Below are positions 5,924-58,977 of a DNA stretch of 64,000 nucleotides, in pieces. The stretch lies in the IMG/VR virus record IMGVR_UViG_3300045988_115635, positions 41,405-105,404 of that record; one strand, given 5' to 3'. The notes under the pieces were generated by a model. The model ran no database searches and was not told where the DNA came from. It worked only from the letters and a program-made list of their open reading frames with translations. Positions within the stretch are counted from its first letter, which is position 1. Each line of letters starts with the position of its first letter. This DNA comes from a virus. The position numbers were made by a program, and so were the translations under genes.

Positions 5924-5977
5924 CTCAATAAATTTATTGAGATAGAACAAATGTACGTGTTCAATTATTTTATTGAC
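5924..5977. promoter_or_regulatory. Composite palindromic element, copy A: CTCAATAAATTTATTGAG + AGAACAAATGTAC (degenerate GAAC-N4-GTTC core) + partial inverted copy CAATTATTTTATTGAC
   Basis: Read directly from the sequence. It lies between the terminator at 5978-6012 and the SNF2 gene start at 5863. Confidence 0.6.
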
Positions 5978-6012
5978 AAAAAAAAGGAGGTATTCATAAC
6001 GAATACCCCCTA
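5978..6012 (-). terminator. Rho-independent terminator after the tail-fibre gene
   Basis: GGAGGTATTC / GAATACCCCC stem with loop ATAAC, flanked by an A8 run on plus (= U-run on the minus-strand transcript). Confidence 0.6.
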
Positions 6013-6070
6013 TCAGCGCACCCACATCATTAGAGCAAGGAGATGATGAGTGAATACATACATTATAACA

Positions 6071-7948
6071 TTAGTAATAGCTATACATATAGTTAATTGT
6101 CTTAGATGAATTACCCCCAACAGGTGATTTGTAATTGATAACGATTTGACCATTTGATAAATCGACCGTGCTAGGGAAAGTAATTGATATATCTCTATCA
6201 ATAGCAGTTGTAATACCCTGCTGCGCAACATCAGAACCAGGGAAATAACCATTTACGGTAACGCTGTTAATAAATACAGATGGTGCTACCGAACTGTCAT
6301 AACTTGATTCACCTTCATAGAATACATAAGCGTCAATATCTACTGTTCGAGATTGCAAGCCGATAACATTTAACTGATCTTCAATTCTATTTCCATCTGG
6401 TCCAACGTAATAAACATCAGAATACGATGGAATAGCCGTGAATTGAACTTCATCTTCTACGGTAGTAGAAGCAGAAATAACGCCTGTGTTGTTATCAGTT
6501 GTTTCTGTGCCCTTCCAATGGATAAGCAAAGATTTAACATCGCCTAAAGCTTCAAAGTCAGTTAACGACCATTCTGGCGTTTGCAAGTATGCACTCATAT
6601 AAGGGTCGTCTAGCTTCTTAATGTCACCTGTCGACAAACTAAAATGAGGGTTAAGTTTGATATAAGCAGATTCGAAAAATACCGATGCTCCAAATACCTT
6701 GTTTGATGAATACATTTCCGCGCCGTCAGAACTACCCCCAACATCAGAATAGTAAAAGTAACCAGCATCAATAGCAGTTACAGCAGCAAGGCTACTTGTG
6801 ATATTAAGTGTCGCTTGTTGCTGATTTACCTTAACGGTCAAAACACCATTACCAGTAGCTTTGTAATCTATTGAGCAGGTTTGACCAACAGTCATTTCAA
6901 ATGCCGTTGTATTACTAATGGTCCATTCTGCGTCCATCGAGTTACCACTACGGGTATCATAGTTAATATCACCAATAGTAAAGGTAGCGTAAAACTCATT
7001 GGTATAACCTACATAATCGCTTGCGCCTAAGCGGTTAATTTTTAAATCTTCAATGTATGGGTCTAAACACATACCAGAACTATCAATAGCAGAAACGGTA
7101 TACGTTTTTGAAGAATCATAATTATCTAACTGATAAGAGGTAAGGCGTGTCTTAGCAATCATTACCCCATCTTCATAGATGTAATAAACGAATACGCCAT
7201 TACCGCCTGTTGCTTCTGTCCAAGTAGCATAACCAACAATAGAAGCACTAAAGTCACTTTCGCCATCTTCTGTATTCCATGTCAGATCATCAGGTGTACC
7301 AATCTGAAAATCAGGTTTAGGGACAATAGCAAAAGCTTGTAACCATTCCTGGGGGTTGTTTGATAATACTCTAGCTTTAAGGGTATTAGTCTGCCTTGGT
7401 AGCGTCATTCTTGTATAGGTCTTATTTGGTAAGTCATACCACTGATACCACTTATTACCACCATCGGGGCTAAACTCCCAAAGAAGGTTTGAGTATCTAA
7501 AGCGTGCATTATCGAACCACGCTTCGCCTTCCCCATCATCGGAATATAGATTAAACGATAAACCTACACTGTCTGTAGTGTCGTCATTCTTACCCCAGCT
7601 ACGCCCCTTTTCAACCGATTCAGGGTACTTGTTATAGCTTTGCCTTACGTGGTATTCAGGACCAGTAGAACCCATCTCATCAAGTACCGCGAACATATTA
7701 GCCCAAGTGGTAGCTCTAGGGTCGGTTGTAGTAGCAGGTACAGATGTTCCTTTACCTGCTCGGTCGAAAAATCTTTTTATTTCGTTAACAGTAATGCTTT
7801 TGCCAATTCCGTTTTCGATTGAAGGGTCAAAGATATTGTAGGTATATTCTCCTAATTCCCTAGCACCATATCTAACCATTCTCACAGAACCCTGGGCGGA
7901 TTTACCGCCTTCAAAACAATTACCGATTCTTAATGTTGGGTCTGGCAT
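6071..7948 (-). CDS. Tail fibre / receptor-binding-like structural protein (625 aa)
   Basis: Last large ORF of the tail-baseplate operon, followed by a terminator. S/T/G/N-rich beta-type sequence; no enzymatic motif recognised. Confidence 0.4.
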   Translation of the reverse strand: MPDPTLRIGNCFEGGKSAQGSVRMVRYGARELGEYTYNIFDPSIENGIGKSITVNEIKRFFDRAGKGTSVPATTTDPRATTWANMFAVLDEMGSTGPEYHVRQSYNKYPESVEKGRSWGKNDDTTDSVGLSFNLYSDDGEGEAWFDNARFRYSNLLWEFSPDGGNKWYQWYDLPNKTYTRMTLPRQTNTLKARVLSNNPQEWLQAFAIVPKPDFQIGTPDDLTWNTEDGESDFSASIVGYATWTEATGGNGVFVYYIYEDGVMIAKTRLTSYQLDNYDSSKTYTVSAIDSSGMCLDPYIEDLKINRLGASDYVGYTNEFYATFTIGDINYDTRSGNSMDAEWTISNTTAFEMTVGQTCSIDYKATGNGVLTVKVNQQQATLNITSSLAAVTAIDAGYFYYSDVGGSSDGAEMYSSNKVFGASVFFESAYIKLNPHFSLSTGDIKKLDDPYMSAYLQTPEWSLTDFEALGDVKSLLIHWKGTETTDNNTGVISASTTVEDEVQFTAIPSYSDVYYVGPDGNRIEDQLNVIGLQSRTVDIDAYVFYEGESSYDSSVAPSVFINSVTVNGYFPGSDVAQQGITTAIDRDISITFPSTVDLSNGQIVINYKSPVGGNSSKTINYMYSYY

Positions 7949-9394
7949 TTATAACGTCCTCCATTCACCACGAACGCGAACATAAACACCTTCGGTTTCG
8001 TGCCACTTACCATCTTTGTAAATATAGGTTAAGCCTTGATGCCACCTGTTTTCATTAGGAACATCATAACGCCAAATAATACCGCCGTAATACTCCACAC
8101 TACAGGTAGTATTTTCACCGTCAGAATTATAAATAAGTCTGTTTTTAGTATCGTAGGCTTTCAGAGTAAACACTTGAATAGTTCTAGGTCGCTGCCTGCC
8201 TAACGTAACCTCAACATACTTTTCTCCATTTACTCCACTGTCTATAGCATCGCTTGCATTCCATGACTTAACAAGTCCGTCTAAGTCTCCTACTAATTCA
8301 AAGCGAGACAATGGATAAGAGCCATCGAACCAACCAGAATAGTAAAACTTAACTGTCTCACCCGCACAAAGAACTTCATTTCTTGTGCCACGCCTGCCAA
8401 CGCAATAAAGTTCTTCAGGAGCAACAGACGGAATTTCAAAGTAATGGATAGAATTAGACCACGTTACAGCCTTTGAGAAAGCCTGTCCGTCCCAAGTTCT
8501 AACACCAAAGTATAATTTGTCGTCTGTTTGAATATCGAACGCCAGAGAGGGGTCTACGTCCGCCGTAAGGGTATCTATTCCGTTGACAGACTGCAATAAA
8601 GTAGCGTATTGAGCAACATTATCACCTACGGTTGCTCCACTCGGTACACTGTCACCTCTGTATACGAATATGTCATACCTACTTGCGCCATTACACCTGT
8701 CCCAAGAAACGGTAACTCTTTGGTCTGATGCACGAATAATTTCAATTTCTGTTGGTGATGCTGTTACCTGCGAAGGTGAAGCAGGTCTAGGGTATACGCC
8801 AATCCAACCACCCGCTAATTCTTCAAGATTTCTATTATTTAAGAAACAACCATCATTAGGGCATGCTCTCCATGCATAAGTACCAATATGTTCATCAGCG
8901 TTCCAAGGTCTCCAATAACCTTGTGCGCCTTGCCAGTTGTTAATATCCTGTGCATTAGCGGCATAAATGCCACCGCCGCCTAAACCAGTAATAGGCGGTC
9001 TGGTAATGCAAGGAATTATATGTAATTGACCATCATCAGTACCTATTGATACTGTGCCATTAAAGACAGTAAACCAACCTTTCCAAGCAGAACCATCATA
9101 GAGCGAATCTCCATACTGCCAGTAAAAATCACCGCCACCATAGTATGAACCACTCCACTGATGACCCCAAAACCTACGGGTGGTCTTAATGTCTGCATAC
9201 TGATATGTGCCGTTTACTTTGCACTCATGAGCAATCCTAAACGAAAAATAAGAAGAATAGTTTTTAAGTCTCAATCTAATCTGCAAAGTTACTTTTACAC
9301 TGCTTGCAGTACGATTAGACGAACTTAGAGAGTATTCATAAAAAGTCTTAGGACTGCCATTTGATTGCGTAGCACCTGATAAAGGTATTGTCAT
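7949..9394 (-). CDS. Tail fibre / baseplate-associated structural protein (481 aa)
   Basis: Gly/Trp/Tyr-rich ORF abutting the 625-aa protein with a 1-nt gap. Confidence 0.4.
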   Translation of the reverse strand: MTIPLSGATQSNGSPKTFYEYSLSSSNRTASSVKVTLQIRLRLKNYSSYFSFRIAHECKVNGTYQYADIKTTRRFWGHQWSGSYYGGGDFYWQYGDSLYDGSAWKGWFTVFNGTVSIGTDDGQLHIIPCITRPPITGLGGGGIYAANAQDINNWQGAQGYWRPWNADEHIGTYAWRACPNDGCFLNNRNLEELAGGWIGVYPRPASPSQVTASPTEIEIIRASDQRVTVSWDRCNGASRYDIFVYRGDSVPSGATVGDNVAQYATLLQSVNGIDTLTADVDPSLAFDIQTDDKLYFGVRTWDGQAFSKAVTWSNSIHYFEIPSVAPEELYCVGRRGTRNEVLCAGETVKFYYSGWFDGSYPLSRFELVGDLDGLVKSWNASDAIDSGVNGEKYVEVTLGRQRPRTIQVFTLKAYDTKNRLIYNSDGENTTCSVEYYGGIIWRYDVPNENRWHQGLTYIYKDGKWHETEGVYVRVRGEWRTL

Positions 9395-9404
9395 AAAACA
9401 TCAC

Positions 9405-9998
9405 CTAGTCGATGTACTTTACGTATAAGTCACCATCACGTAATTCAGATGGTAAAGATGCTAAATCAGGGTCAGCCGTACCATAGAAAATTCTGTACAT
9501 GTCTGTAATATCAGCCATCACATGAGTATGCACCTTAGCAGCAGCAGGTAGTGTCACGTCAGTTTTACCATCAATAAAAGTGTCCGCTGCGCCATCAATA
9601 TGAATAGTAAAGCCTTTAAGAGAATCAGACGTTACAGCATGATCAGAATTTGGGACCCATTCGGGGGTAGGGTGGTAGTGTTGACTAGTAACGTATCTAG
9701 TCATACCACCTTCTTTGTGATCATCTGCTCTTTGCTGCAAATAATCATCAACAAAAAATGTTGTATCGGTTGGTACAGTAGAAACAACAATATCATCGCC
9801 ATCTTTATCTACGCCTACTGTGATATTGGTATTTCCACCATTTGATACTAATTTAGCCTTTTCTATTTTATCGAAAATAGCACCTGATACAGAAAGCCTA
9901 AAATCGGCTACTTCTTGCGTGCTATCAGCTTCACCCTCCTGGGGGGTTGAAAACCCCCAGTCTCTATCCGCGCTAATTGTCTCTAAAACGTAAGCCAT
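9405..9998 (-). CDS. Hypothetical tail protein (197 aa)
   Basis: ORF within the tail module; no motif. Confidence 0.35.
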   Translation of the reverse strand: MAYVLETISADRDWGFSTPQEGEADSTQEVADFRLSVSGAIFDKIEKAKLVSNGGNTNITVGVDKDGDDIVVSTVPTDTTFFVDDYLQQRADDHKEGGMTRYVTSQHYHPTPEWVPNSDHAVTSDSLKGFTIHIDGAADTFIDGKTDVTLPAAAKVHTHVMADITDMYRIFYGTADPDLASLPSELRDGDLYVKYID

Positions 9999-10010
9999 TC
10001 TAGCTCTCCT

Positions 10011-13000
10011 TTAGTAAGTGCCATTGTTATAAGTTCTAGTGTTGTAAATGTTGTCTATATTCTCGCACTCTGTACCGTCAATCCATACCTCCATGTTTCG
10101 ACCACGCTTATTTTCAGCGTCAATTTGCGTAGGAGTTTGATATATTGACCTTTCACCTTGTGCGCTCCACTGAATCAAAACAAAAGACTTTACACCTTCA
10201 TTAAAATCAGCGTGAGTGATAAATGAATTCAAAAAGCCGTCTGGTTCTTGAATCACTACATATAATTGCTGCTCGTAGGTGTAAACGCTCAAACGCCTTG
10301 TTTCATCTTGATAGTCAAGAATATAGCGTTCTGAAGCCGTACCACGCTGCCCCTCTGGTACTTTGTCTAAGTCAGTATCAGGCGTGTATTCAAATGTAAT
10401 AAAGCCTGCACCCGCATCAATTCTGAATGCTGTACTCATTTCTAACCATGCATCAGCATTAGCAATATGCGCACCCTTGCCCGTCTCATAAGTAATAGAG
10501 CCTGACGGGTCGTGTTCTGTCATTTCGTAACAAGGCAACTCTACAGGCTTAAATACAGCGTGATAATCTCTCATTGGCTCACGTGATTCATTTGCATAGC
10601 CAAAATAGAAGTAATAAGCACCAACAAAAGCATTGATGTCATAGTCATAATATCCATCAGCACTAGCACCTTCAGGAATATCATCTTGAATTCTGAACCA
10701 TACTTCCATATTGTCGGTAATGTCACAGTCAATTTCTTGACACTGTACGCCGTTGTAGTAAATACACCTAAAGTCTTTTAAGTCTTCACGAACCATTGGC
10801 GTTGATTGATTTCGTAAAGTGTCAAAATCAATGTTAGGGACAAACACCGTGGTACCAGCAGGGACAAAACCATCAATAGGAATTCTCACACGGTAGTCAT
10901 AAGCATTTGACCACCACATACCGCCTACTTGTGGTGTGAAGGTATTGCCGATTGTTACCCACTTGCCACCTTCAACTTCATATTTAGTATTAAATACTTC
11001 TTCTTCTGAAAGGTCCAAACATTGTAAATACCAAGTTCTAGGCTCAACGCTGAAAACATCAACCTGAATAGATGCAATAGATTGTGAGCGTACTAACTTG
11101 CTTTCAGATGATATGCCACTATCTCCACTAGAAAGATTTGCATGCAATACCGTACCAGAAACGCCAAATTCGGTAGATTCTACCTCCGAATTCATTGCGC
11201 CCCATTCCTGAATCATGTCTGACGGATAGTCAAACACTTCTCTAGGCTCGCGTTGATTTACAGCAAAGTCGAAAGTCTTAAAAGCAATAACACTATTGAG
11301 GTTAATGAACTCTAATGAGTTCATTAATTCCATAGTTGGGACCATGCGCTCGTCATTGGTAAGTTCGAAACCTGTATTTTTCTCTACTACAGATTCATCA
11401 GCCACAAATGCCACGAATTCGCTATCTGGTTCAATAATCGCACGAACACCTGAAATACCAAAAGAAATGTCTTTTATAGCTACAACATAGGCAAGATCAT
11501 TTGATCTCATATTTTGCTGTATCTTGTATTCGTGTTGACCCTCTTCGTAAAACCTCATATTTAACACTGTGCCACTTACTGGGGGTCTAGCACTAGAAGG
11601 TAACTGGTTTTCATAACGCATGCTATCGCCCAGAATAGAAGCAATAGCACCATTGTCAGTAAAACGCCAAGAATCAGGCGTTACCAAAATAGGCAAATAT
11701 AGCGGGTTATTTGTCTGTGAAATAGTATCAGCAATAGTTCTTTTTTGTTCTATTTGCTGATAGATATTAGAAGTGCCAATAGTGTCATATACGCCTAAAT
11801 TATTTTCATAAATAGGCGTATCTTGTGTAGACAATAACTGTCTGTACAATTCCATTGAATACGTGCTTGCAGGCTGATTATCAAAGTAGTGTTTAATTTC
11901 GTAAGGATAATCTCGCTCAAAAACACTAATATCATCGTCAATTACTGTATATGGAATTGAGCTTAATGTTGTGAATTCAAGTTTAATAAACTTTACCTTA
12001 CGCAAGGGCAAGGAATACTTAACACTTTGCAGCGTATAAACACTTGGATATGGTTTCCAACTTGCAGTTGCAGGGTCACTATCTTCAGTAGAATAAACAT
12101 TCATCTGACAGCCGCCCCATACAGCACTTATTGTCATATTGTTTACTCTTTGAGCGTTTCCGTCACCATCTCGCAAGTCAAAGATTAAGTATTCAACGGA
12201 TTCTTGAAGCGTGTTAGGCTGTGAACACCAAAAAGTAGAAGAATCTGCATCTAACAAGCATTCTTCATTACGCTCATAAAATTCAGTCTCTACTTTATTA
12301 CCGAACGGGTCCTCAAATGTTGCGTCTACATAATCCTCTTTTCTTTTGATGTCATAATGCAAAGCAAAATTGCTCATATCAATAGAATATGGAAAATCTT
12401 GCTCTTTTAATGCACCGTCTGACAGTGTTTTGTAGTAAGGAACGTCCAAGCGGTTAAAAACAAGTCTAAAGCCATATGCTTGCGCCAAATTAAATTTAAA
12501 AGAAACGCTAAACATGTCACCCGTAGTGCTTGCGCCGCTCCAGGTTCTGCAAGTATAAGAAAGCTGTGTGCCATATTCATTTGTGATTCTTTCCCAGGTT
12601 TCCTCTGTGTCAGACAAAAGAACGTAAGGAATAATCTCAACAGGCTTCTTAGAAATGTCGAAAGTAAGCTTGTTTACAGGAATACCCTTATCAAGCCTTA
12701 CTTCAAACCATTCTGTAGGCTTATCATCGGGGTATGCTTCATCGCTAGACCACATTCGCGAACTTCTAGCCTGCTCATTAAACTTTTCGTTTACTAGCGG
12801 GGTGTAGTCAATAGGATAGGACCAATCAGCCATACCGTCTGACCCAAAATAAGAAGCAGAATACAGTTTAGAAGAAACATCAGAAACAGCGTTTGCAGCC
12901 TTTTGTAAGTCGGTTCTATTATCCATGTCGAGATAATAGAAAGCACCTGAATGTCTTACGTCAAAATTTCCGATGTGTTCACTTGATGCCGAAACATCAT

Positions 13001-13883: not shown

Positions 13884-13886
13884 CTA

Positions 13887-22728: not shown

Positions 22729-23813
22729 GGTAATAGACCTGGCTTACATGGATAGTTTTGATCAAAAATAACGCCGCCATGCCAACCCCACCCCGTACCT
22801 TGCGGTACTCGCTTATTACCAGCGTTGACCCAATCCATCAACGCCCATTCTTTTACATAGCCGATATTATCCATGACGGTATTGTTGCCTACATAAATAC
22901 CAACGTGTCCGTACACATTGTCGGGGTTTCCTCCACTATTCCAACCATAGCCATAGACACAACAACCAGGAATAACTTTAGTCCAATCAGTAGACGCTCC
23001 GTATTGCCTTGCTGCTTCTCTTGCGCTTGCTGGTCGAGCGTTAGAAACGCCTGCTTTTTCAAATACGTCAGATACCCATTTTTGGCAATAACCACCTTGC
23101 GCGGTAATGCCGTACTTTTCAGAATTTTTAGCTACCTCAATAATTTTCTTTTGTGCTTCTGAAACATCACCGTTAAAAACATCACCTGACGTTTGCCCTG
23201 TATTGCCTACATTTGGTCCTGACGTTTGGAGCATTTGATAAATCTCATTTACTAAGTCTGCTCCTTGGGTATCAGCTAAACGCACGTTGTACATCTGCAT
23301 TGCCCACTGAATTACCTCTGTAGGTAATTGACCTATAGATATTTTATCAGCAGACCAATTACATACAGCAGATAAGATATTTACCGCTGCTCTCCAATAG
23401 CCGCCATCTTGGTCGGTAGATTCCGCGCTTTGAAAAGTAACTAACTCTCTACTAGACAATAAGCCACTATCCCAATAAAGAGACTGCAAGCGATATAAAA
23501 CGTCTTTGCCTGTAATGGTTACAGGACCGCTATATAAAGTAAAGGTAGGGCAAGTAGTGATATAACCAGAAAATACTTGATATTTCTCACTTTTAGTTAA
23601 CCAAATTACTATAGCGTCCATAGGCGTGAAAACACCGTTGTATTTATTGTCATTGTTTTGAAGCGTGATTGAAAAAGTCGAGCAGCCATCTGTATTAAGA
23701 GATACAGAAAAATTGGTAATATCATCTGAAAGATCATAGTATTTGTAGCCCGTTTGCTGTCTTGCCCTTACGGTAGCATGAACCATAGGGGTATAGGTTA
23801 AGATTTTCGTCAT
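22725..23813 (-). CDS. Tail-associated lysin, paralog 3: conserved N-terminal domain plus a C-terminal CHAP-like amidase/endopeptidase domain
   Basis: N-terminus MTKILTYTPM…. The C-terminus has GGYCQKWVSDVF (Cys) and NVYGHVGIYVG (His), a CHAP-like arrangement. ATGA overlap with paralog 2. Confidence 0.55.
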   Translation of the reverse strand: MTKILTYTPMVHATVRARQQTGYKYYDLSDDITNFSVSLNTDGCSTFSITLQNNDNKYNGVFTPMDAIVIWLTKSEKYQVFSGYITTCPTFTLYSGPVTITGKDVLYRLQSLYWDSGLLSSRELVTFQSAESTDQDGGYWRAAVNILSAVCNWSADKISIGQLPTEVIQWAMQMYNVRLADTQGADLVNEIYQMLQTSGPNVGNTGQTSGDVFNGDVSEAQKKIIEVAKNSEKYGITAQGGYCQKWVSDVFEKAGVSNARPASAREAARQYGASTDWTKVIPGCCVYGYGWNSGGNPDNVYGHVGIYVGNNTVMDNIGYVKEWALMDWVNAGNKRVPQGTGWGWHGGVIFDQNYPCKPGLLP

Positions 23814-27251: not shown

Positions 27252-27583
27252 TACAGACCTTCTTCTTCCATCATCTGAATAAGACCTTCCATTGTGTCAG
27301 CGGTGATTTCTACGTCATTTCTCTTATCTATTTTACGCAATTCCCTTTGTTGCGTAATATATCTAAATGCTTCTGGCTTGGTAAACGCCAACCAAAAGTC
27401 TTTGTTATCCTCTAGCTTCTTTCTCTCACGTTTTGTTTCTACTTCATTTGCTATAAACAAACATGTAGACTGAACGTAATTTAAGTCTCCCTGTAATATA
27501 CCCGCTAATTTTGCCCGTTGAATCAGGGATAAAACGTATTTCACATTTTGCGGTAACTCTGAATAATCTTCACAGTCTATCAA
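27251..27583 (-). CDS. Tail assembly chaperone, -1 frame portion (T part of a G/GT-like pair)
   Basis: Its reading frame is the -1 frame relative to the upstream chaperone ORF and stays open back to the A7 slippery site (manual translation IKSLLIDCEDYSELPQNVKY). Confidence 0.5.
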   Translation of the reverse strand: MIDCEDYSELPQNVKYVLSLIQRAKLAGILQGDLNYVQSTCLFIANEVETKRERKKLEDNKDFWLAFTKPEAFRYITQQRELRKIDKRNDVEITADTMEGLIQMMEEEGL

Positions 27584-27591
27584 CAGGCTAT

Positions 27592-27987
27592 TTATTTTTT
27601 TAAGCTAGAAGCAATCTCACCAGCCGTTTTCACCATCTTGGTATATTCATCATAAATGTCTCTTACTACAGATGCGTACCAATCTTTAATTACTTGCGCC
27701 TTTTCATAAATCAAATCAACATCGGGTGATAATGCCTTTACCAAAGGCATTCCATCAACCGCTTCTATTGCAGCAGCAACAAAATACATTTGCATAGCAG
27801 CTAACTCACTTCGAGTACCTACATACTCTTTTGCTAGTTGCCCTACTCTTAATTCTTCACCTTGCGTAAGCGTCTTAATTAAGATTTTATGCCCTGCAAT
27901 TTCAATAGTCCTTTGAAGCTTTCCAACGTAGAGCAGCCCTGAAAAGGGCTGCTTATACTCATCGGGAAAAACATCTTCTTTGTTCAT
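27592..27987 (-). CDS. Tail assembly chaperone (G-like, 131 aa)
   Basis: Sits between the tube and tape measure genes and ends in a slippery A7 run. Ribosome-binding site GAGAGGGAA before the ATG. Confidence 0.5.
   Translation of the reverse strand: MNKEDVFPDEYKQPFSGLLYVGKLQRTIEIAGHKILIKTLTQGEELRVGQLAKEYVGTRSELAAMQMYFVAAAIEAVDGMPLVKALSPDVDLIYEKAQVIKDWYASVVRDIYDEYTKMVKTAGEIASSLKK
27595..27601 (-). other. Candidate -1 programmed ribosomal frameshift site (A_AAA_AAA) at the end of the first chaperone ORF
   Basis: Minus-strand sequence AGC TTA AAA AAA TAA: an A7 heptamer immediately before the stop codon. The -1 frame continues into the 27251..27583 ORF. Confidence 0.5.
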
Positions 27988-28009: not shown

Positions 28010-28059
28010 CTCAATAAAATAATTGAGATAGAACAAATGTTCTACTAATTATTATTGAG
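28010..28059. promoter_or_regulatory. Composite palindromic element, copy B: CTCAATAAAATAATTGAG + ATAGAACAAATGTTCTAC + degenerate inverted copy TAATTATTATTGAG
   Basis: Read directly from the sequence. Lies between the tube stop (28068) and the chaperone start (27987). Confidence 0.65.
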
Positions 28060-33225: not shown

Positions 33226-33744
33226 TTACTCATTGTCGTATTCAGGAATTTCCTCGGTGAGTTCTTCTAAAGGAGAAACAGATTCTTTAACTTCTTCTTT
33301 TTCTTCTTTTCCCTCGGTCTTTTCCTCGGTCTTTTCCTCGGTCTTCTTTACCCACTTACCGTCTACTTTTTCGTAGTCGTCAGGGTTTTCCTTCTTGTGT
33401 CTACCACAGAAATGAATCTTATCTTCATCGCCATTTGCAACACTTACAACAGCATTGCAAACCTCACCGTTTTTCTTAACTGCTGGACAGTGCACGACAG
33501 TCATTACTTCTTCTTCATCATCTTCCGCAACGTCAATTACCTCAACGTTAGGAATAGCAACCTTTTTCTTTTTAGGAGCGTCAACTACCTCAACTTTGCC
33601 CTGTGCAATAAGAGTTTTAATAGTTTCGTCTTCCTCGGTCGCGTTAACAATGGTTACTGTTTCGCCTGGTCCGATTTGTTTATGGTTTGCGCCATTGTTA
33701 TAAGAAAAATTCTGATAGGTGTTTGTTAGATTTTTAAGAAACAT
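33226..33744 (-). CDS. Hypothetical protein with Cys/His zinc-ribbon-like motif and a KE-rich tail (172 aa)
   Basis: HCPAVKKNGEVCNAV…HFCGRH. First gene after the capsid terminator and motif copy C. Confidence 0.4.
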   Translation of the reverse strand: MFLKNLTNTYQNFSYNNGANHKQIGPGETVTIVNATEEDETIKTLIAQGKVEVVDAPKKKKVAIPNVEVIDVAEDDEEEVMTVVHCPAVKKNGEVCNAVVSVANGDEDKIHFCGRHKKENPDDYEKVDGKWVKKTEEKTEEKTEGKEEKEEVKESVSPLEELTEEIPEYDNE

Positions 33745-33819
33745 TATGTATCTCCTTTTGTTTGGTACGTCATAAGAAAATAATAACCCAAACAGCTAAT
33801 AAACGCACCTATTCGCAAC

Positions 33820-33853
33820 CTCAATAAAATAATTGAGATAGAACAAATGTTTG
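33820..33853. promoter_or_regulatory. Composite element, copy C: CTCAATAAAATAATTGAG + ATAGAACAAATGTTTG (one mismatch in the right half-site)
   Basis: Read from the sequence. Immediately downstream (in the minus sense) of the capsid terminator. Confidence 0.6.
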
Positions 33854-33863: not shown

Positions 33864-33896
33864 TAAAAAAAGACGGGTGGTAAAAACCACCCGCCT
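33864..33896 (-). terminator. Rho-independent terminator after the major capsid gene
   Basis: Minus-strand transcript GGCGGGUGG-UUUUUA-CCACCCGUC followed by U7. Confidence 0.7.
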
Positions 33897-35412: not shown

Positions 35413-36405
35413 TTAGAACAAAGCACCGTAATTAGGTGCGGTAGATTTTTCAACATTAGCATGCTTTACTGGCATATGCTTTGCTGGCTTAATACCAGCT
35501 ACCTTTTGAGCAGAACCACAAGCACGAAGCTTTTTAGCTACAAGCTTCATTTCCTTTGCAGAATACTTGTTCATGTATTCGTTGCACTTTGCAGCTTCAC
35601 GAACAGTTGCAGGAATAACACCCGCTGCCTTTTCAGCCTTTACCATTTCGAGAGCAGCAACGAACTTTTGCTGTGCTGCTTCTACAGTCGAAGGGGGCTT
35701 TACGCCTTCGCCGTTATCCTTGGTGGTATCGTCTGGGGTGATAGATTCCTCTACCAAATCATCAGATACAGCAACCTCGGTTGCAGTGTCCTTCTGCGGC
35801 AAATCACCGTGGTCTGGGGTATCCTTTACCAAGTCGTCAGAAATAGATTCTTCTGCTTTCTTGGTACGCTTTGCCTTGCGAGAAAGTTTACGCTTTGCAG
35901 CCTTGCGCTTTGCAACTGCTTCAATAGTATCCTCTACAGCTTCTTCAATTACTTCTTCAAGCTGCTCCTGGGGTACATCAACGTCTTCTGGGATAGTTTC
36001 CATTACAGCTTCAGTAGCTTCTTCTGCTACTTCTTCTGCTACCTCGTCAACGTCTTTTCCTTCGGTATCTACATCAACGATCTCATCAAGTTCTTCACCA
36101 TGATCTTCCTGTGCAATCTTAAAGGCTTTAATCTTAATGCGTCTTGCCAAACGCTTTGCAGCCTTTTCGTCTTGCTTAGGTTCAGGCGCGGGTTCAGTTG
36201 GTGCATCAGCTGGTTCATCAACTGGCTTTTCTACTACATCATTAGTAGTATCGTCCTGATTTTCTTCCTGTGAAGTTTTGAGAGTTTTTGCGATACGGGT
36301 CTTAGGAGTAATGTTAGCCTTGCGAGACTTCAAAGAAGAAACATAAGACTGCAACATCTTCTTGCGCTGCTCTGCCGTCAGCTTACCCATAAACGCTCCT
36401 TTCAC
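35413..36405 (-). CDS. Scaffolding protein (candidate)
   Basis: 330 aa, extremely acidic and low-complexity (EE/DV/AE repeats), predicted helical, located directly upstream of the capsid genes. Confidence 0.5.
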   Translation of the reverse strand: MKGAFMGKLTAEQRKKMLQSYVSSLKSRKANITPKTRIAKTLKTSQEENQDDTTNDVVEKPVDEPADAPTEPAPEPKQDEKAAKRLARRIKIKAFKIAQEDHGEELDEIVDVDTEGKDVDEVAEEVAEEATEAVMETIPEDVDVPQEQLEEVIEEAVEDTIEAVAKRKAAKRKLSRKAKRTKKAEESISDDLVKDTPDHGDLPQKDTATEVAVSDDLVEESITPDDTTKDNGEGVKPPSTVEAAQQKFVAALEMVKAEKAAGVIPATVREAAKCNEYMNKYSAKEMKLVAKKLRACGSAQKVAGIKPAKHMPVKHANVEKSTAPNYGALF

Positions 36406-36428: not shown

Positions 36429-36446
36429 TTGTATATTTCTATACAA
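36429..36446. promoter_or_regulatory. Palindrome TTGTATA-TTTC-TATACAA upstream of the scaffold-capsid operon
   Basis: Perfect 7-bp inverted arms, located between the terminator at 36484-36522 and the scaffold start at 36405. Confidence 0.35.
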
Positions 36447-43220: not shown

Positions 43221-43815
43221 GCCTACCTCTTTTGCTATCTCTTATTGAGATAATTGTACAAACAATTAAAGATATTTCTGTAAATATAATAAAGGTCATT
43301 TTTAAAATAAGAAACAGGGAAAGTTCTTTTGTCCCTATTAAGCCGCCGCTAATTAGCGAAATGATAGCTAATAAGATAATAGAGGTAGCAACAATATGAA
43401 GATCATCGACTATTGAGTAACGTATGCCCATTACTAAAAGCCCTGCGAAAACAATAAAAGCAGACGGCATAACAATACTATGAGGTGTAAAAGTCATGAA
43501 AGCACCAATCATAGACGACATAAAAACAAATACCGTCAATAGCATCATATCAACTGTTTTCCAACTTTTATTTGTTGCGCCTTTAAATAAAAGCACGCCA
43601 GAAAAGCCGTATATAAATAAGCTAGTTAAACGTGCAAAAGGGTTGTAGTCTCCAAAAATACCAACTACACCCGATGATGATGCCATACATAGCAAAGCAG
43701 CCGAAATATAACACATTCGGTTATCATCACACTTTTTGTAGCTTATGATTGATGCGATTAAGAAAAAGGAAAAGAATACGACAAAAGACAAATATATATA
43801 AAAATTATTATCCAT
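43210..43815 (-). CDS. Polytopic membrane protein (201 aa, at least 5 TM segments)
   Basis: Multiple 18-22-residue hydrophobic stretches; AT-rich codon usage compared with its neighbours. Confidence 0.4.
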   Translation of the reverse strand: MDNNFYIYLSFVVFFSFFLIASIISYKKCDDNRMCYISAALLCMASSSGVVGIFGDYNPFARLTSLFIYGFSGVLLFKGATNKSWKTVDMMLLTVFVFMSSMIGAFMTFTPHSIVMPSAFIVFAGLLVMGIRYSIVDDLHIVATSIILLAIISLISGGLIGTKELSLFLILKMTFIIFTEISLIVCTIISIRDSKRGRHVR

Positions 43816-50012: not shown

Positions 50013-50381
50013 TTGTTAGGAATGATAATGCTTACATTAAAGATAAAAGATATTTTTAGTAATCGAACAGAGCAGACCTACGGGTTAATGTATAAAGATG
50101 AATACGAAAAAGACTGCTGTGCTTTATTCTCTTTCAAAGAACCTAAAGTTCTTAATTTTCATACTGCTAATTGCAAATTTCCTATTTTGGTTGTTTATTT
50201 GCGTGATGATTTGTCTATAGATTCCTGGTATTTAATGTATCCAAATGAATCAGGCTTTAAGTCTATAAAACCTTGCAAGTTTGCCGTTGAAATGGAATTT
50301 GATAAACATAAACTCATTGAGTTAAAACAGTCAGTAATGACTAGATTTGACTTAAAAGATAAAACGATTTCTTTTTACTAA
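50013..50381 (+). CDS. Plus-strand moron ORF (about 120 aa; TTG or ATG start at 50013/50022)
   Basis: The only credible plus-strand ORF. AT-rich, non-repetitive protein, convergent with its neighbours and followed by a bidirectional terminator. Confidence 0.4.
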   Translation: MLGMIMLTLKIKDIFSNRTEQTYGLMYKDEYEKDCCALFSFKEPKVLNFHTANCKFPILVVYLRDDLSIDSWYLMYPNESGFKSIKPCKFAVEMEFDKHKLIELKQSVMTRFDLKDKTISFY

Positions 50382-50384: not shown

Positions 50385-50420
50385 CTCAATAAAATAATTG
50401 AGAACGAACATTTGTTCGTG
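50385..50420. promoter_or_regulatory. Composite element, copy D: CTCAATAAAATAATTGAG + AACGAACATTTGTTCGTG (perfect CGAAC-N4-GTTCG)
   Basis: Read from the sequence. Adjacent to the terminator at 50431-50462. Confidence 0.65.
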
Positions 50421-50430
50421 TTTTAGGCAA

Positions 50431-50462
50431 AATAAAAAGCACCCCGTAAAGAGGTGCTTTCT
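50431..50462. terminator. Bidirectional rho-independent terminator
   Basis: AGCACC-CCGTAAAGA-GGTGCT hairpin with an A-run upstream and a T-run downstream on plus. It terminates the plus-strand moron and the minus-strand holin-like gene. Confidence 0.6.
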
Positions 50463-50479
50463 AGTCTCATGGAGTTTTA

Positions 50480-50869
50480 TTACTCTGCTTTCTTTACCTC
50501 TACGCCATCTTCTTGGTCGGTAGTTTCAGCAGGTGTTTCAGTTGGGGTTTCAGTTTCAGTGTCATTTTCAGAAGTGAAATAAAACCACTTATCAAGGCTT
50601 TCACTGGTAACACCGATAGACTTAAACAAGTTGTAAGCAACCTGTACGCCACCTACAACAGCAGTAATCCAAGTAAGCAGTGTTTCAGGCGTTGGTACGC
50701 CATTTACGCAAGCGGTAAATACACCTGCAAGCAAAGAAACAACAATTGCGATAACCCAATTGGTCAATTTAGACCAAGAAGAACGCTTAACAAGCTGAAC
50801 TACGTATGGCAAGAACAATGAAAAGAAAACAGCAGCCACAGGCTGAATCCATGCTTCCCAATTCTCCAT
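50480..50869 (-). CDS. Holin-like small membrane protein (129 aa, 3 TM, acidic C-terminus)
   Basis: TM helices VAAVFFSLFLPYVVQLV, WVIAIVVSLLAGVFTACV and LLTWITAVVGGVQVAY, then an acidic tail TETETPTETPAETTDQEDG. Confidence 0.45.
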   Translation of the reverse strand: MENWEAWIQPVAAVFFSLFLPYVVQLVKRSSWSKLTNWVIAIVVSLLAGVFTACVNGVPTPETLLTWITAVVGGVQVAYNLFKSIGVTSESLDKWFYFTSENDTETETPTETPAETTDQEDGVEVKKAE

Positions 50870-52913: not shown

Positions 52914-52916
52914 GTT

Positions 52917-53602: not shown

Positions 53603-53619
53603 ATCTTCCCTCTTTACAA

Positions 53620-53650: not shown

Positions 53651-53677
53651 ATCTCACCAAACTATAAAAAATGAAAA

Positions 53678-55477: not shown

Positions 55478-55762
55478 TTAAGATACCACCTGTACAAAAT
55501 TCAAACCTTCGGTTTTTTCTTTAATCATTTTGTTAGCTTCTTCCAAGGCTTCATTGTCGTCAGCGAGTTCAGATACTAGCCTGTTTATCTTTTCGTTTTC
55601 AGTAAGTTCAATGCTTCCAATTTCAGCAAGTTCAGATTCCAACTGTTCAATCTCATTTGCCAAAGATAGATAGCGAGCGTTTAGTTTTTCATATTCTTGA
55701 AAAGCAGCCGCCCAGTTATTAAGAGCAAGCTTTAGCGTGTTTCTTTTAGTTTCGTCTAACAT
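55478..55762 (-). CDS. Hypothetical coiled-coil protein (94 aa)
   Basis: ORF; heptad-rich. Confidence 0.35.
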   Translation of the reverse strand: MLDETKRNTLKLALNNWAAAFQEYEKLNARYLSLANEIEQLESELAEIGSIELTENEKINRLVSELADDNEALEEANKMIKEKTEGLNFVQVVS

Positions 55763-55766
55763 GGTC

Positions 55767-56324
55767 TTACTCCGCTGGCGTTGCTTCTAAGTCAACGATT
55801 GATGCAAAAGAAGGTTCAATAATGGTTTCTTTTTCTTCAATAAGTTCAGCCGTAGTGTTTGAAGCTGTAGAAGTGTTCTTTGATCTTTCTGAAGCTTTCT
55901 TCAATGGTTTTGGTGCACTCAATGGCTTTTTAGTTTGTTCTGCCATTTCCTTAGCACCGTTTTCTTGTTTTTGAATCAATGCTTCTAATCCGCCGTTATC
56001 TTCAATTTCCTTTTTAACTTCTTTATTGGTCCCTTTAGATTCTTTTCCCTGTGTAGGTTTCTTTGCCTGTCTTTTAGGTTCAGGCTTTTTAACTTCTTTA
56101 ACTTCTTTTGACTTTTCTTTGTCATGGTCTAAATAGTTCTTAAGATATTCGCGAAACAGTTCAATGTGTTTATCGCAAACTTCATATAAAGCAAGTTCAT
56201 CTTCGCCTTTGATTGATACGTAAATGTCTGGCGTATCTCCTACTTGCTCCATAATGTCTTTTGTAATATCCAATTCCTTCGAATTGGTGCAGTTTGGATA
56301 ATCGCAAACTAAACTTAAACTCAT
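55767..56324 (-). CDS. Lys-rich probable nucleic-acid-binding protein (185 aa)
   Basis: N-terminal CxxC…C…H cluster, then a KEVKEVKKPEPKRQAKKPTQGK basic low-complexity region. First gene after motif copy E. Confidence 0.4.
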   Translation of the reverse strand: MSLSLVCDYPNCTNSKELDITKDIMEQVGDTPDIYVSIKGEDELALYEVCDKHIELFREYLKNYLDHDKEKSKEVKEVKKPEPKRQAKKPTQGKESKGTNKEVKKEIEDNGGLEALIQKQENGAKEMAEQTKKPLSAPKPLKKASERSKNTSTASNTTAELIEEKETIIEPSFASIVDLEATPAE

Positions 56325-56344
56325 TTCCCGAACCTCACTTAAAT

Positions 56345-56398
56345 CTCAATTATTTTATTGAGTTCGAACATTTGTTCTATCTCAATTATTTTATTGAG
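56345..56398. promoter_or_regulatory. Composite element, copy E (complete symmetric form): CTCAATTATTTTATTGAG + TTCGAACATTTGTTCTAT + CTCAATTATTTTATTGAG
   Basis: Read from the sequence: both flanking 18-bp palindromes are intact around a CGAAC-N4-GTTCT core. Confidence 0.7.
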
Positions 56399-56429
56399 AA
56401 AATCCCTTCGATAATTATAACGTTAAACA

Positions 56430-57545
56430 TCATAGCCAGATGGAATCACATGAAAATTTCTGCCAGCAGTTAGCACTTAACACTTGCCCTACCGTAGGGT
56501 CTTTTCTACTTTGCAAAAATTCCCTAAAGTCGTTATTCCTAAAAGCTTTCAAAATTCTACCAAGCAAACCTTCATTCTCTTTGTTCTTAAACACCCGCCT
56601 GATAATTTCAGATTCTTTCAAGCAATACGCTTCAGTTTTAAACGTTTGCTCCATAGGGAATTCTTTATTTAAGGTTTTCTGAACTTCAAGGAAATAATCT
56701 TCTTTCCCGTCAACACATGAATTTTCTTGAATTTCCTCCACAGGCGTTTCATCTACTTTTTCTACATTCCAAGGTACTGTAACTGGCTTGGCTGTAGGTG
56801 TTAAATTCTCTTGGCTTGAAAGAGAATTTTGCGTTTCGCTTTTTTTATTATTATTTATATTCTCTGTATATAAATTTATATTTATATATTCTCTGTATTT
56901 GTCTGCCGATTTTTCGGGAGAGCCTTTTTGTTGATTTGTACAAACGCTTTGTACCCCGTTTTGTGGTAAGTCTGCATCAAAATTTTGTTCGTTGTTTGGC
57001 AAAAAATTTTCAGGTTCTACAAAATCGGTTTCTTCACGATCTTCAAATTCTTCATATTCTTCGTTTGGGTCATGGTCGGTGCTATAGTAATTGTTCGGGT
57101 CCATGAGTTCTTTAATACGTTCTGGATTGATCTTGATATACAAAACGTTGTTAATGTTTGTGTAAACCTTGCCTGCTGGCGTGTCATAAGAGACAGTTTG
57201 ATTTCTGAACACACGTTCGATAGCACCAAGTTTTTCAAGGAAAACTATAGCGTCTGTAGCTGCTCGCTTAGAAATGTTAAATTGTTCTGATATTTGTTTA
57301 TAGGAGCGTTGTAACAAGTCTCCCTTAAACTTCTTGGAATACCCCTTAAAAGCCCCTGTCGCTTGATCTCTGACCTCTTTAGGGCGATACCAGTATAAGA
57401 TGTCGGATAAAATCAAAATGGCGTTCATTTTCGGTTTGCCATTCGGTCCAACTATTGTTTTATAAAACATGTGTGGTACAATATTACCAACAAAGGGCAT
57501 TCTTCCGATTGCTTCTACTTCTGAAGTCATTGGTGAATTATTCAT
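56430..57545 (-). CDS. Candidate replication initiator / replisome organiser (winged-helix)
   Basis: HTH-like ISKRAATDAIVFLEKLGAIERV. An internal AT-rich low-complexity linker coincides with direct repeats and a palindrome (56850-56955). Confidence 0.4.
   Translation of the reverse strand: MNNSPMTSEVEAIGRMPFVGNIVPHMFYKTIVGPNGKPKMNAILILSDILYWYRPKEVRDQATGAFKGYSKKFKGDLLQRSYKQISEQFNISKRAATDAIVFLEKLGAIERVFRNQTVSYDTPAGKVYTNINNVLYIKINPERIKELMDPNNYYSTDHDPNEEYEEFEDREETDFVEPENFLPNNEQNFDADLPQNGVQSVCTNQQKGSPEKSADKYREYININLYTENINNNKKSETQNSLSSQENLTPTAKPVTVPWNVEKVDETPVEEIQENSCVDGKEDYFLEVQKTLNKEFPMEQTFKTEAYCLKESEIIRRVFKNKENEGLLGRILKAFRNNDFREFLQSRKDPTVGQVLSANCWQKFSCDSIWL
56850..56955. other. Candidate origin-like region inside the initiator gene: 2x TATATTCTCTGTAT direct repeats in an extremely AT-rich stretch, plus the palindrome GTACAAACGCTTTGTAC
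   Basis: Read directly from the sequence. Confidence 0.4.
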
Positions 57546-57663
57546 AATTTACCTCCTTTGAGTTGGTTTTTATTATTTTCTTTAGTTTAGTAGTTGCGAG
57601 CGACAAAATAAAGAGTGCCCTTTATTTTTTTTGCCTAGATTTTTTATCTAGGCTCTTTTTATA

Positions 57664-57692
57664 TAAAAAAAGAGCGGGTGTTAAACCCGCTC
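57664..57692 (-). terminator. Rho-independent terminator after the 378-aa gene
   Basis: GAGCGGGT-GTTAAA-ACCCGCTC hairpin preceded on plus by A7 (U7 on the minus transcript). A second hairpin, GCCTAGA…TCTAGGC, with a T-run faces the plus strand. Confidence 0.6.
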
Positions 57693-57735
57693 AAAAACAA
57701 TGGAAAGCAAAAATAAGGAAAGAACCACACTCAAA

Positions 57736-58872
57736 TTATATCGCTTGATAGCCTTTATTATCAATCATTGCGTAAAATTCTTGGGTTGGTAGCCATTTAG
57801 TAGCTTCAACGTTAAACATGTTTGCCCCAGAAGCAGAATCAGCAAATTGAATCATACCAGATTCTTTATCCATAACTTCGATGATGTTTCCATCTTCTTT
57901 TTGATACTGATCTCCTTTTTCAGCAGTATCCATGTAAACGTCATGCTTGCCAGCTTCAATAAAATCATTGTCTAAAAGCTGCTCTACAAAATGATTTGCG
58001 CCAACCTTAAAACTCTTATTGTTATTAAGATTTATGCCTTCAATACTACCTTCTTTTTTAGCGGTAATTTGCATCTTAGAGCCAGTATGGCTAGATGCGT
58101 AAATGTTGCCTGGTTCAATTCCAATATAAGTGTTGTACCAGGTCTTACAATGATCTAATGCTTCTTGATAACCTTGTGAGTAACCATTAGAGACTTCCTC
58201 GCCGCCAACTAGAATAGAATACTCTGCTGGTTTGTCGACAAAATCATTACAGAATGTAATACGTGCTTCAATGTCTGGCTCAAAGTCGTAAACATCTACA
58301 GGTATTTCAATCTCTGGCGTGAGTGCTGTGTCTATAGAAAATACAAAGCCACATTCGGTACAGATATATGAAGTTTCAAACTCATCACGATAGTATTCTT
58401 CAATGAATGGAGAGCCACAAACAGGGCAAATACTAGAATCAATAAAAGCGGGGTCGCTTGTTAAGAAGTTAAGAGATTCTACATCTCCTGCCGTTACATA
58501 CCTGCTTGCAATATCCATTTGTGATGCATAAATTTTAGAAGCTAGAACACTTGGGCGTTCCTTCAATGCTGAAAAGCGGTAAACTCTGCCTTCTTTTACA
58601 GCGTATTCTTCATCATCTTCTTCAAAGGTGTTATCAAGTGTTTCAAAATCTTCTTCAGTAGCGTGAACAATACCGTTTTCATCATCAAACTCAACGGTAC
58701 ATTCAGTAAAAGGTGCTACTAGTTCTTTAATTTCATCTTTGCAAAGCAAACGTTCGTACTCGTTAATCGCGTCTGATATTTTCTCACGCGCTTCAGCTTC
58801 TGCTTCATCGTAAGTATAGGTATCTTCGACTTCTTCCGCGATTTGAGCCAGAATATCGGTTCTATAACTCAT
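57736..58872 (-). CDS. Hypothetical acidic protein with a zinc ribbon (378 aa)
   Basis: CPVCGSPF…CTECGF motif. First gene downstream of motif copy F. Confidence 0.4.
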   Translation of the reverse strand: MSYRTDILAQIAEEVEDTYTYDEAEAEAREKISDAINEYERLLCKDEIKELVAPFTECTVEFDDENGIVHATEEDFETLDNTFEEDDEEYAVKEGRVYRFSALKERPSVLASKIYASQMDIASRYVTAGDVESLNFLTSDPAFIDSSICPVCGSPFIEEYYRDEFETSYICTECGFVFSIDTALTPEIEIPVDVYDFEPDIEARITFCNDFVDKPAEYSILVGGEEVSNGYSQGYQEALDHCKTWYNTYIGIEPGNIYASSHTGSKMQITAKKEGSIEGINLNNNKSFKVGANHFVEQLLDNDFIEAGKHDVYMDTAEKGDQYQKEDGNIIEVMDKESGMIQFADSASGANMFNVEATKWLPTQEFYAMIDNKGYQAI

Positions 58873-58941
58873 TTCCGCTCCTTATCTTTATTTGCTTAGA
58901 AAATTGTAACAATATAAGAAAAGTCTCGCACCTTATAAAAC

Positions 58942-58977
58942 CTCAATTATTTTATTGAGATAGAACATCTGTTCTTA
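58942..58977. promoter_or_regulatory. Composite element, copy F: CTCAATTATTTTATTGAG + ATAGAACATCTGTTCTTA
   Basis: Read from the sequence. Lies between the terminator at 58985-59040 and the gene start at 58872. Confidence 0.65.

Follow-up and report, generated by a model that had tools for sequence, protein, structure and literature searches.

We analyzed a 64,000-nucleotide (nt) window of viral DNA (positions 41,405 to 105,404 of IMG/VR record IMGVR_UViG_3300045988_115635) in which a composite palindromic element recurs at six loci, here designated A to F. The window has a GC content of 39%, and its genes, which span from an IstB-like loader and an SNF2 helicase through tail, head, and terminase genes to RtcB and a tail fiber, lie nearly all on the minus strand, so that the elements are to be read on that strand. 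Read in this direction, all six copies have the same layout, namely, the 12-base-pair (bp) palindrome GAACAnnTGTTC (the core), 3 bp, the 18-bp dyad CTCAAT-W6-ATTGAG (the 18-mer), and then the gene. The distance from the 18-mer to the next start codon is 20 to 75 nt, except at D (423 nt). A first-pass annotation had described a reiterated composite palindrome at transcription-unit junctions; the repeat proved genuine, and all six copies that it had located were found in place.

The window contains seven exact copies of CTCAAT-W6-ATTGAG plus the distal 18-mer of A, which has two mismatches. When up to 3 mismatches were allowed, the 18-mer gave 11 matches versus 3.1 expected, and GAACAnnTGTTC at up to 1 mismatch also gave 11 (2.2 expected); in both cases, none of 100 shuffles reached this number. 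A scan of the window with a position weight matrix (PWM) returned eight sites at the six loci, with scores of 19.6 to 25.5 bits, the next best score (12.0) being equal to the mean maximum of simulated sequences. All six loci are noncoding, in a window with 4.6% noncoding DNA, and share one orientation relative to the minus-strand genes. Two degenerate relatives that had been proposed (3690 to 3725 and 43236 to 43272) have to be discarded, as they share only TATCTCAAT, without the gene-proximal arm and with PWM scores at noise level; the first of them overlaps a TTTACA-17-TATCAT promoter. The terminators reported directly 5' of A, C, D, and F were confirmed, and none was found 5' of B or E. The description of a second, inverted 18-mer was right for E, which has a complete second copy, while the word "inverted" is meaningless here, the two E centers having the same orientation. 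The features of the six loci are as follows.

5887 to 5895, minus strand: inferred extended -10 element TGgTATAGT near A, its hexamer 32 to 37 nt 3' of the A 18-mer
5924 to 5941, minus strand: gene-proximal 18-mer of A, CTCAATAAATTTATTGAG, a perfect palindrome, 60 nt 5' of the ATG of the SNF2 helicase gene (4085 to 5863)
5945 to 5956, minus strand: core of A, GTACATTTGTTC, left half-site GTAC instead of GAAC
5960 to 5977, minus strand: distal 18-mer of A, GTCAATAAAATAATTGAA, 2 mismatches, 19.6 bits
5978 to 6011, minus strand: intrinsic terminator directly 5' of A, an 11-bp stem followed by T8
28010 to 28027, minus strand: proximal 18-mer of B, CTCAATTATTTTATTGAG, 22 nt 5' of the ATG of gene 27592 to 27987
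28031 to 28042, minus strand: core of B, GAACATTTGTTC
28045 to 28059, minus strand: truncated distal 18-mer of B, CTCAATAATAATTAG
33780 to 33809, minus strand: inferred promoter 3' of C, with a GGTGCG box (33804 to 33809) and a TATTAT -10 element (33780 to 33785)
33820 to 33837, minus strand: 18-mer of C, 3' of the major capsid gene and 75 nt 5' of gene 33226 to 33744
33841 to 33852, minus strand: core of C, AAACATTTGTTC, left half degenerate (AAAC)
33864 to 33896, minus strand: intrinsic terminator after the capsid gene, directly 5' of C
50385 to 50402, minus strand: 18-mer of D, between a bidirectional terminator and the stop codon of a plus-strand DUF192 gene, 423 nt from the next minus-strand start
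50406 to 50417, minus strand: core of D, GAACAAATGTTC, with its flanks a perfect CGAAC-N4-GTTCG over 14 bp
50425 to 50463, minus strand: terminator 5' of D
56345 to 56362, minus strand: proximal 18-mer of E, 20 nt 5' of the ATG of gene 55767 to 56324
56366 to 56377, minus strand: core of E, GAACAAATGTTC
56381 to 56398, minus strand: distal 18-mer of E, perfect, center oriented as in the proximal copy
56414 to 56419, minus strand: TATAAT of an inferred promoter 15 nt 5' of E, just past the stop codon of a replication-initiator-like gene
58903 to 58932, minus strand: inferred promoter 3' of F, conserved in the clade (F-site alignment, lineages of 39 to 63% GC), with GGTGCG (58927 to 58932), CTTTTCTT, and TGtTACAAT (58903 to 58911)
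58942 to 58959, minus strand: 18-mer of F, 69 nt 5' of the ATG of gene 57736 to 58872
58963 to 58974, minus strand: core of F, GAACAGATGTTC
58986 to 59039, minus strand: hairpin and T-run terminator 5' of F, ending a short transcript from a sigma-A-type promoter (59078 to 59049)

Conservation and symmetry of the 18-mer

The window had no nucleotide match among 50,697 deposited phage records (megablast). Its only close protein-level relative among phage records was Eggerthella phage LE2-3; this isolate has a culturable host (Eggerthella lenta DSM 2243) and a 112-kb genome of 63% GC that shows protein-level synteny with the window (terminase 68% identical; best segment of the capsid protein 87% identical). 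A literature search found no publication on LE2-3. Distant terminase relatives were the cluster C mycobacteriophages and Rhodococcus phage E3, which are large myoviruses. The window, the uncultivated relatives L020, L055, and L017, and LE2-3 belong to one phage clade with GC contents of 39, 47, 52.5, 59, and 63%, respectively, and capsid proteins that are still 75 to 90% identical, implying large host shifts.

Across this clade, the 18-mer has the consensus CTCRATwAwwTwATYGAG. Exact CTCAAT-W6-ATTGAG sites are found in L020 (47% GC) and CTCGAT-type sites in L055 and L017, and LE2-3 has 15 sites of the form nnCGAT-W6-ATCGAG, which hold 16 of the 18 W6-ATCGAG matches on both strands of its genome. 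The LE2-3 copies appear ca. every 7.5 kb in all modules, co-oriented with transcription and often in short intergenic gaps or at gene ends; roughly a third of these copies lie inside coding DNA, where they are kept in place across lineages while the neighboring sequence diverges. Three window sites have orthologous sites elsewhere, namely, C (LE2-3 57045, L017, and L020), E (LE2-3 30751 and L055 7763), and F (LE2-3 27442 and L055 4891). Given that the genes 3' of C, E, and F are orthologous to those at the LE2-3 sites (LE23_79, LE23_55, and LE23_50, respectively), these three sites are ancestral, and their positions have been maintained despite only 29 to 57% protein identity in the flanking genes. 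For A, B, and D, there was no counterpart in LE2-3 or L055. Among relatives 96.5 to 98% identical to the window, B, C, and E showed no presence/absence polymorphism, and E was identical. More distant relatives (L021 to L024, with a capsid identity of 41 to 46%) had no such palindrome, and scans of IMG/VR, JGI metagenomes, and GTDB genomes with the pattern of core plus 18-mer gave only single chance matches without homology to the window, with no prophage copy in the GTDB genomes. The repeat is a real, clade-specific 18-bp palindromic DNA site that lies, at several loci, next to putative promoters at the starts of gene blocks in large, mostly uncultivated phages.

Alignment of 27 sites revealed that A5, T6, A8, T11, A13, T14, G16, and A17 are invariant. 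These positions are mirror symmetric at 5/14, 6/13, and 8/11, and pair 3/16 is invariant save at one site. The center of the 18-mer, which is not palindromic, was found in both orientations. Symmetry that reaches the center, together with a center in either orientation, is as expected for a dimer on duplex DNA. Only one pair of six covaried, pair 4-15, which is A-T where genomic GC is low and G-C where it is high, and L017 has a mixed site; this pattern points to a tolerated R/Y position that follows genome composition and not to pairing. The outer pairs were broken without compensation in 8/18 and 4/18 distinct sequences. The element folded better than shuffled sequence (z-scores of -2.2 to -4.9), which is the trivial outcome for any palindrome, and the 18-mer alone reached only -3.7 to -6 kcal/mol. 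No match to the element was found in Rfam at the gathering threshold. Together, these patterns favor a double-stranded DNA site for a symmetric dimeric protein and not an RNA hairpin.

Putative neighboring promoters and the LexA-like core

The 18-mer itself offered no consistent sigma-A -35/-10 reading, and the element was rejected as a sigma-A or extracytoplasmic function (ECF)-type promoter because no hexamer pair at a spacing of 16 to 18 bp fits all copies. At six sites, a -10 hexamer starts 32 to 37 nt after the 18-mer: A (TGgTATAGT), C (TATTAT), F (TGtTACAAT), and LE2-3 27442 (TGcTAAAAT), 57045 (TAGACT), and 75102 (TAGAAT). With the last of these 7 nt ahead of the ATG, its transcript would be leaderless. 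The chance of a -10 element at three of three sites is ca. 9e-6 in LE2-3 and 1.7e-3 in the window, values to be read with promoter calls that are consensus based and all inferred and with a distance window that was picked after inspection. In the F-site alignment of all lineages, from 39 to 63% GC, the 18-mer, GGTGCG at the -35 position, CTTTTCTT, and TGnTAMAAT are kept while the flanks diverge, and the -10 position of the C site is also kept in LE2-3 and L017 (TAGACT). This conserved spacing at A, C, and F places the center of the 18-mer near -55 and that of the window core near -72. The GGTGCG box, located 10 to 11 nt 3' of the 18-mer (window 33804 to 33809 and 58927 to 58932, LE2-3 27470 to 27475, and L055 ca. 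4919 to 4924), may represent an element of its own by which promoters of this class are recognized. In L013 to L016 (96.5 to 98% identical to the window), a 20-nt indel (ca. two helical turns) is found exactly between the C 18-mer and this box (window 33800 to 33820).

A different placement was observed in the E orthologues of LE2-3 and L055, where TGaTACAAT comes after the stop codon of the gene upstream and directly adjoins the 18-mer, and at LE2-3 109206, where an A/T-rich sigma-A-like promoter ends 8 nt before it. With a putative promoter immediately 5' at E-type sites, the 18-mer would cover the start site or the leader. Such variable placement relative to promoters appears operator-like, being typical of operators and not of core promoter elements.

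The core, which resembles a Cheo box, was detected only in the window's lineage, where it is conserved only in the relatives 96.5 to 98% identical to the window. It is absent beside the 18-mers of LE2-3, L020, L017, and L055, and the first-pass view of an SOS-like core as the heart of the element finds no support, as every related lineage that keeps the 18-mer lacks it. Its reading as GAAC-N4-GTTC stood in four of the six copies (B, D, E, and F, with D a perfect CGAACAAATGTTCG) and failed in A, with GTAC, and in C, with AAAC. The GAAC-N4-GTTC palindrome occurs 8 times in the window versus 0.8 expected, with four occurrences in coding DNA; LE2-3 has 2 versus 1.2 expected, which is the chance level, and none is near an 18-mer. 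The coding-DNA palindromes lie at 5745, 26460, 51227, and 57206, and three have the form AGAAC-N4-GTTCT; in close relatives, the one at 57206 is unchanged, and the one at 26460 keeps both half-sites with a single change in the N4 spacer. The C element of 97.5%-identical relatives has three substitutions, all in the N4 spacer of the core.

Regarding its position, the core is centered ca. 70 to 75 bp 5' of the inferred start at A, C, and F and falls in the leader at E, not over -35/-10, and the cores of B and D have no recognizable promoter nearby. A center near -72 is, on these inferred starts, poor for LexA occlusion. Judged by its distribution, the core is an add-on of one lineage fused to an ancestral 18-mer, and the two have different histories. 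The restriction to one lineage, the strict 3-bp register, and the location far 5' of the inferred starts point to an accessory site working with the 18-mer and not to a classical SOS operator. In a host with the Cheo-box type, LexA binding to the core would be expected, and the analysis neither supports nor excludes LexA control. SOS boxes before late genes, which the annotation had regarded as unusual, have a precedent in the late promoter P3 of phage GIL01 (PMC6182141).

Other regulatory features were observed in these genomes. LE2-3 has a second recurrent A/T-rich motif, TCTTAAYTTcTT...TTTAC(A), for example at 8080 to 8123, 11340 to 11373, 22763 to 22796, 92644 to 92675, 108036 to 108058, and 109152 to 109169, which marks apparent host-type promoters with UP-like regions; the window promoter at 3660 to 3700 is the counterpart of the LE2-3 promoter at 92644. 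On the minus strand of the window, positions 58986 to 59285 comprise three tandem units, each with a strong sigma-A-type extended -10 promoter (59285 to 59256, 59194 to 59165, and 59078 to 59049) followed within ca. 40 to 70 nt by a hairpin and T-run terminator, the third promoter overlapping three direct repeats of TTTGTCAGAC. These units are candidate small RNAs, had no Rfam or tRNA match, and resemble a promoter-hairpin-terminator unit at L055 6802 to 6948. A different 18-bp palindrome, TTGTATA-gaaa-TATACAA (36429 to 36446), follows a terminator in the 158-nt gap 5' of gene 35413 to 36405. The DUF192 gene next to D (50013 to 50381) is the sole clear plus-strand gene of the window and is convergent with gene 50480 to 50869; it is also inverted in LE2-3 (LE23_64) and L055, and transcription from D would run antisense to it.

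Candidate binding proteins and competing explanations

Two window proteins were considered in connection with the 18-mer. The winged-helix protein encoded just 5' of E (56430 to 57545) has a well-conserved N-terminal DNA-binding domain, which is nearest to proteins of Tissierellia and Peptoniphilaceae elements (the host of LE2-3 is an actinobacterium). It belongs to the DnaD/DUF6017/HTH_36 family of replication initiators, common in conjugative elements and also found in phages, and was set aside as a binder that is possible but not specific. The conserved 378-residue product of the gene 3' of F (57736 to 58872) has an acidic N terminus, a CxxC...CxxC zinc ribbon, and beta-barrel repeats; its low-confidence model (predicted template modeling score, 0.27) resembles Spt5 KOW arrays, the RapA N-terminal domain, and Tudor domains. 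As a lead only, this protein may be associated with RNA polymerase. The products of the first genes 3' of E and C (55767 to 56324 and 33226 to 33744) are small, with long charged tails and Cys...Cys...Cys-x2-His motifs, and the one at C has a weak, subthreshold match to DUF7444.

In the explanation that we favor, with a probability of roughly 0.5, the 18-bp dyad CTCRAT-wAwwTw-ATYGAG would be the operator of a dimeric, phage-encoded regulator at the promoters of transcription-unit starts. Bound to the dyad as duplex DNA, this symmetric regulator would control promoters of the host RNA polymerase at the starts of phage transcription units. At the terminator-bounded junctions (A, C, F, and their orthologues), the operator would act from a fixed distance 5' of a -35-less or extended -10 promoter, with its center near -55, and at E-type sites, with the -10 element immediately 5', it would lie over the start site or the early leader. 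With these two placements, one protein could stimulate some promoters, block others, or block read-through, and the operons for replication, packaging, and structural proteins would come under temporal control. In the window's lineage only, the 12-bp palindrome added exactly 3 bp 5' of the 18-mer would presumably be the site of a second dimer, for which host LexA, a phage LexA-like protein, and another protein are candidates. The annotation had likewise thought of a protein-binding operator or promoter element, which is more likely than a chance repeat.

Several observations weigh against such an operator. Scans of ca. 45 window proteins with Pfam, PHROGs, and NCBIfam detected no classical regulator or sigma factor; ca. 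45 kb of the phage genome is outside the window. The promoter calls and the distance window have the limits given above. No recognizable promoter was found on either side of window B (which also lacks a terminator) or of LE2-3 13429, 100845, 111606, and 1892, and D has no extended -10 element at the fixed spacing; these sites keep alive the readings of the 18-mer as a self-contained promoter or as a roadblock. Furthermore, the gene-proximal arm ATCGAG is essentially invariant in LE2-3 while the outer 2 nt of the distal arm vary, giving an orientation bias of 11:1, which implies a constraint on direction for which a simple symmetric operator offers no explanation.

The same bias, and the invariant gene-proximal arm ATYGAG, would suit a promoter formed by the 18-mer itself, with the start at or just after that arm, and read through a phage sigma-like factor, an RNA polymerase modification, or an extruded hairpin as in the promoters of the N4 virion RNA polymerase. 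The 18-mer comes after terminators at A, C, D, and F, and its A/T-rich center could melt. At B, E, and six LE2-3 sites, it is only 13 to 26 nt from the start codon, with the Shine-Dalgarno sequence beginning 1 to 2 nt past the arm, so that any promoter for those genes must overlap it. We nevertheless consider this rather unlikely, as the center occurs in both orientations, the copies have no -10 reading in common, extended -10 promoters of host type are conserved beside the sites, and we found neither an RNA polymerase catalytic motif (DxDGD type) in six-frame translations of the window or LE2-3 nor a sigma-like domain in the scanned window proteins. N4-type promoters, moreover, have 3-nt loops and are asymmetric. 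The dispersal of the LE2-3 copies (ca. 7.5 kb apart, co-oriented, in short gaps or at gene ends, and ca. one-third coding) and the lack of promoters at B and several LE2-3 sites would instead fit a roadblock or silencing site of a prophage-type repressor, which has known analogues in the stoperators of cluster A mycobacteriophages and in phage SPbeta (PMC9283540, PMC10516654). A site of this kind seems to us unlikely, however, given that the 18-mer is a dyad (a stoperator is asymmetric and binds a monomer [PMC9283540]), that its -55 position relative to conserved promoters is fixed, which a roadblock does not need, and that integrase, repressor, and partition genes were neither recognized in the window nor annotated in LE2-3.

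Control by host LexA as the main function, with the core as a Cheo box giving a DNA damage response, is unlikely. It can account for the excess of GAAC-N4-GTTC boxes in the window, for the full boxes of B, D, E, and F, and for the confinement of the C substitutions to the N4 spacer, and in GIL01, LexA-gp7 acts on tandem LexA boxes to repress the late promoter P3 (PMC6182141). Against it stand the lineages without the core, the degenerate left half-sites of A and C, the position of the core away from the inferred -35/-10, and the strict 3-bp register, which suggests that the core works with the 18-mer and not as an independent host site; in addition, the window showed no genes for an integrase or for lysogeny, its distant terminase relatives belong to the large myoviruses, and the host may use another box type. 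It is similarly improbable that the 18-mer is the site of a clade-specific phage transcription switch, retained with little change as the phages passed among hosts of 39 to 63% GC, that the low-GC lineage has wired to the host SOS response by a LexA box fused in fixed register to every copy. Through such wiring, DNA damage would reach the operons for replication, packaging, and structural proteins in a large, apparently lytic myovirus. In a variant of this reading, the dyad would be a self-contained promoter read by a phage factor. An RNA hairpin for RNase III processing (also raised by the annotation), for stability, or for translation control just 5' of the ribosome-binding site is very unlikely. 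The folding scores, the many sites where the element abuts the Shine-Dalgarno sequence, and the A-U-to-G-C change at pair 4-15 (G-U in L017) go in its direction, while the uncompensated outer pairs, the invariant and mirror-symmetric A8 and T11 of a "loop" that occurs as either complement, the trivial folding of a palindrome, and the lack of an Rfam match go against it; besides, with inferred starts 3' of the element at A, C, and F, it would not be in the mRNA there. Finally, a selfish repeat resembling a miniature inverted-repeat transposable element, or a recombination hotspot without a regulatory role, is barely credible. Variable copy structure (full in E and partial in A and B), the absence of counterparts of A, B, and D in LE2-3 or L055, the 20-nt indel beside C, and an L020 contig that breaks inside an 18-mer could be taken as signs of mobility. 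However, the element holds its positions in relatives both near and far, at C, E, and F despite the divergence of the flanking genes and at B, C, and E without polymorphism; there are no target-site duplications, the LE2-3 copies in coding DNA stay put while their surroundings diverge, and the database scans returned chance matches only.

Reiterated elements in other phages

Phage repeats of this general type have been described before. In phage phi29, one protein (p4) acts on dyad sites to repress early and activate late promoters, and in phiC31, a conserved 17-bp inverted repeat is reiterated intergenically as repressor operators; both phages and their sequences are unrelated to those studied here and serve as analogies only. 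On present evidence, the 18-mer joins the known reiterated operator-like repeats of phages, with no categorically new mechanism.

In the Bacillus phage SPbeta, the SPbeta repeated element (SPBRE) is likewise a short conserved element, with copies in some ten promoter regions of a large phage genome (PMC10516654). In silico work had pointed to it as a regulator site long before the protein that binds it, a single phage-encoded master regulator named MrpR, was known (PMC10516654). SPbeta differs in being temperate, MrpR is a repressor with a recombinase fold, and no homologue or lysogeny module was seen in the window; the SPBRE is a 15-bp motif versus the 18-bp dyad here, a comparison made by description only. 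Identity of the two elements was rejected, as the window lacked a nucleotide match in the phage records, SPbeta included. The cluster O mycobacteriophages have 17-bp dyads, TGTTCGG-NNN-CCGAACA, which resemble the 18-mer in their many copies in apparently non-temperate actinobacteriophages, in their location (intergenic or at gene ends, with ca. one-third coding), and in a center found in either orientation (PMC4351075). Their authors predicted a dimeric binder, and the function is unknown (PMC4351075). They differ in sequence and spacing, number more than 30 copies, and lie mostly away from promoters, whereas several copies of the 18-mer are at a fixed promoter spacing, and the motif survives a range of 39 to 63% GC.

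The stoperators of the cluster A mycobacteriophages (L5 gp71 family) are likewise numerous in the short gaps between genes of early and late operons, run in the direction of transcription, and occupy promoters as well as operon interiors (PMC9283540). Unlike the 18-bp dyad, in which the orientation bias resides only in the outer 2 nt, they are asymmetric, span 13 bp, and bind a monomeric protein in phages that are temperate. The start-associated sequences (SAS) and extended SAS (ESAS) of the cluster K mycobacteriophages are reiterated just 5' of start codons, include an inverted-repeat part, are conserved at orthologous genes, and have an unknown function (PMC3203893). However, the SAS includes the ribosome-binding site, and the ESAS has 17-bp arms with a variable spacer, whereas the Shine-Dalgarno sequence is separate from the 18-mer, and many copies are 60 to 75 nt from the start codon. 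In GIL01, promoters P1 and P3 have dinBoxes acting with gp7 and gp6 (PMC4551915, PMC6182141); the core described here fits the LexA box consensus, and in GIL01, a late promoter has LexA boxes beside a second palindromic site, that of the phage protein gp6. The GIL01 boxes are within the promoter, with the gp6 site at -43.5, in contrast to a core ca. 70 bp 5' of the inferred starts that occurs in one lineage only, where it is in every case joined to the 18-mer in register.

The 18-mer is distinguished by having survived a 24-point shift in GC content and by its fixed distance from a conserved promoter. Next to nothing is known of how large lytic phages of gut Actinobacteria and Firmicutes-like hosts control transcription, and the consensus CTCRATwAwwTwATYGAG, together with the promoter architecture (18-mer, ca. 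10 nt, GGTGCG, and TGnTAMAAT), provides a precise and testable cis element. Because this architecture is common to the isolated phage LE2-3, with its culturable host, and to uncultivated relatives, start-site mapping is feasible, and DNA-affinity capture offers a way to look for the binder. The motif can also be used as a marker of transcription-unit boundaries when annotating the clade. The fusion to an SOS-like box, if functional, would be a regulatory module gained on top of an ancestral one.

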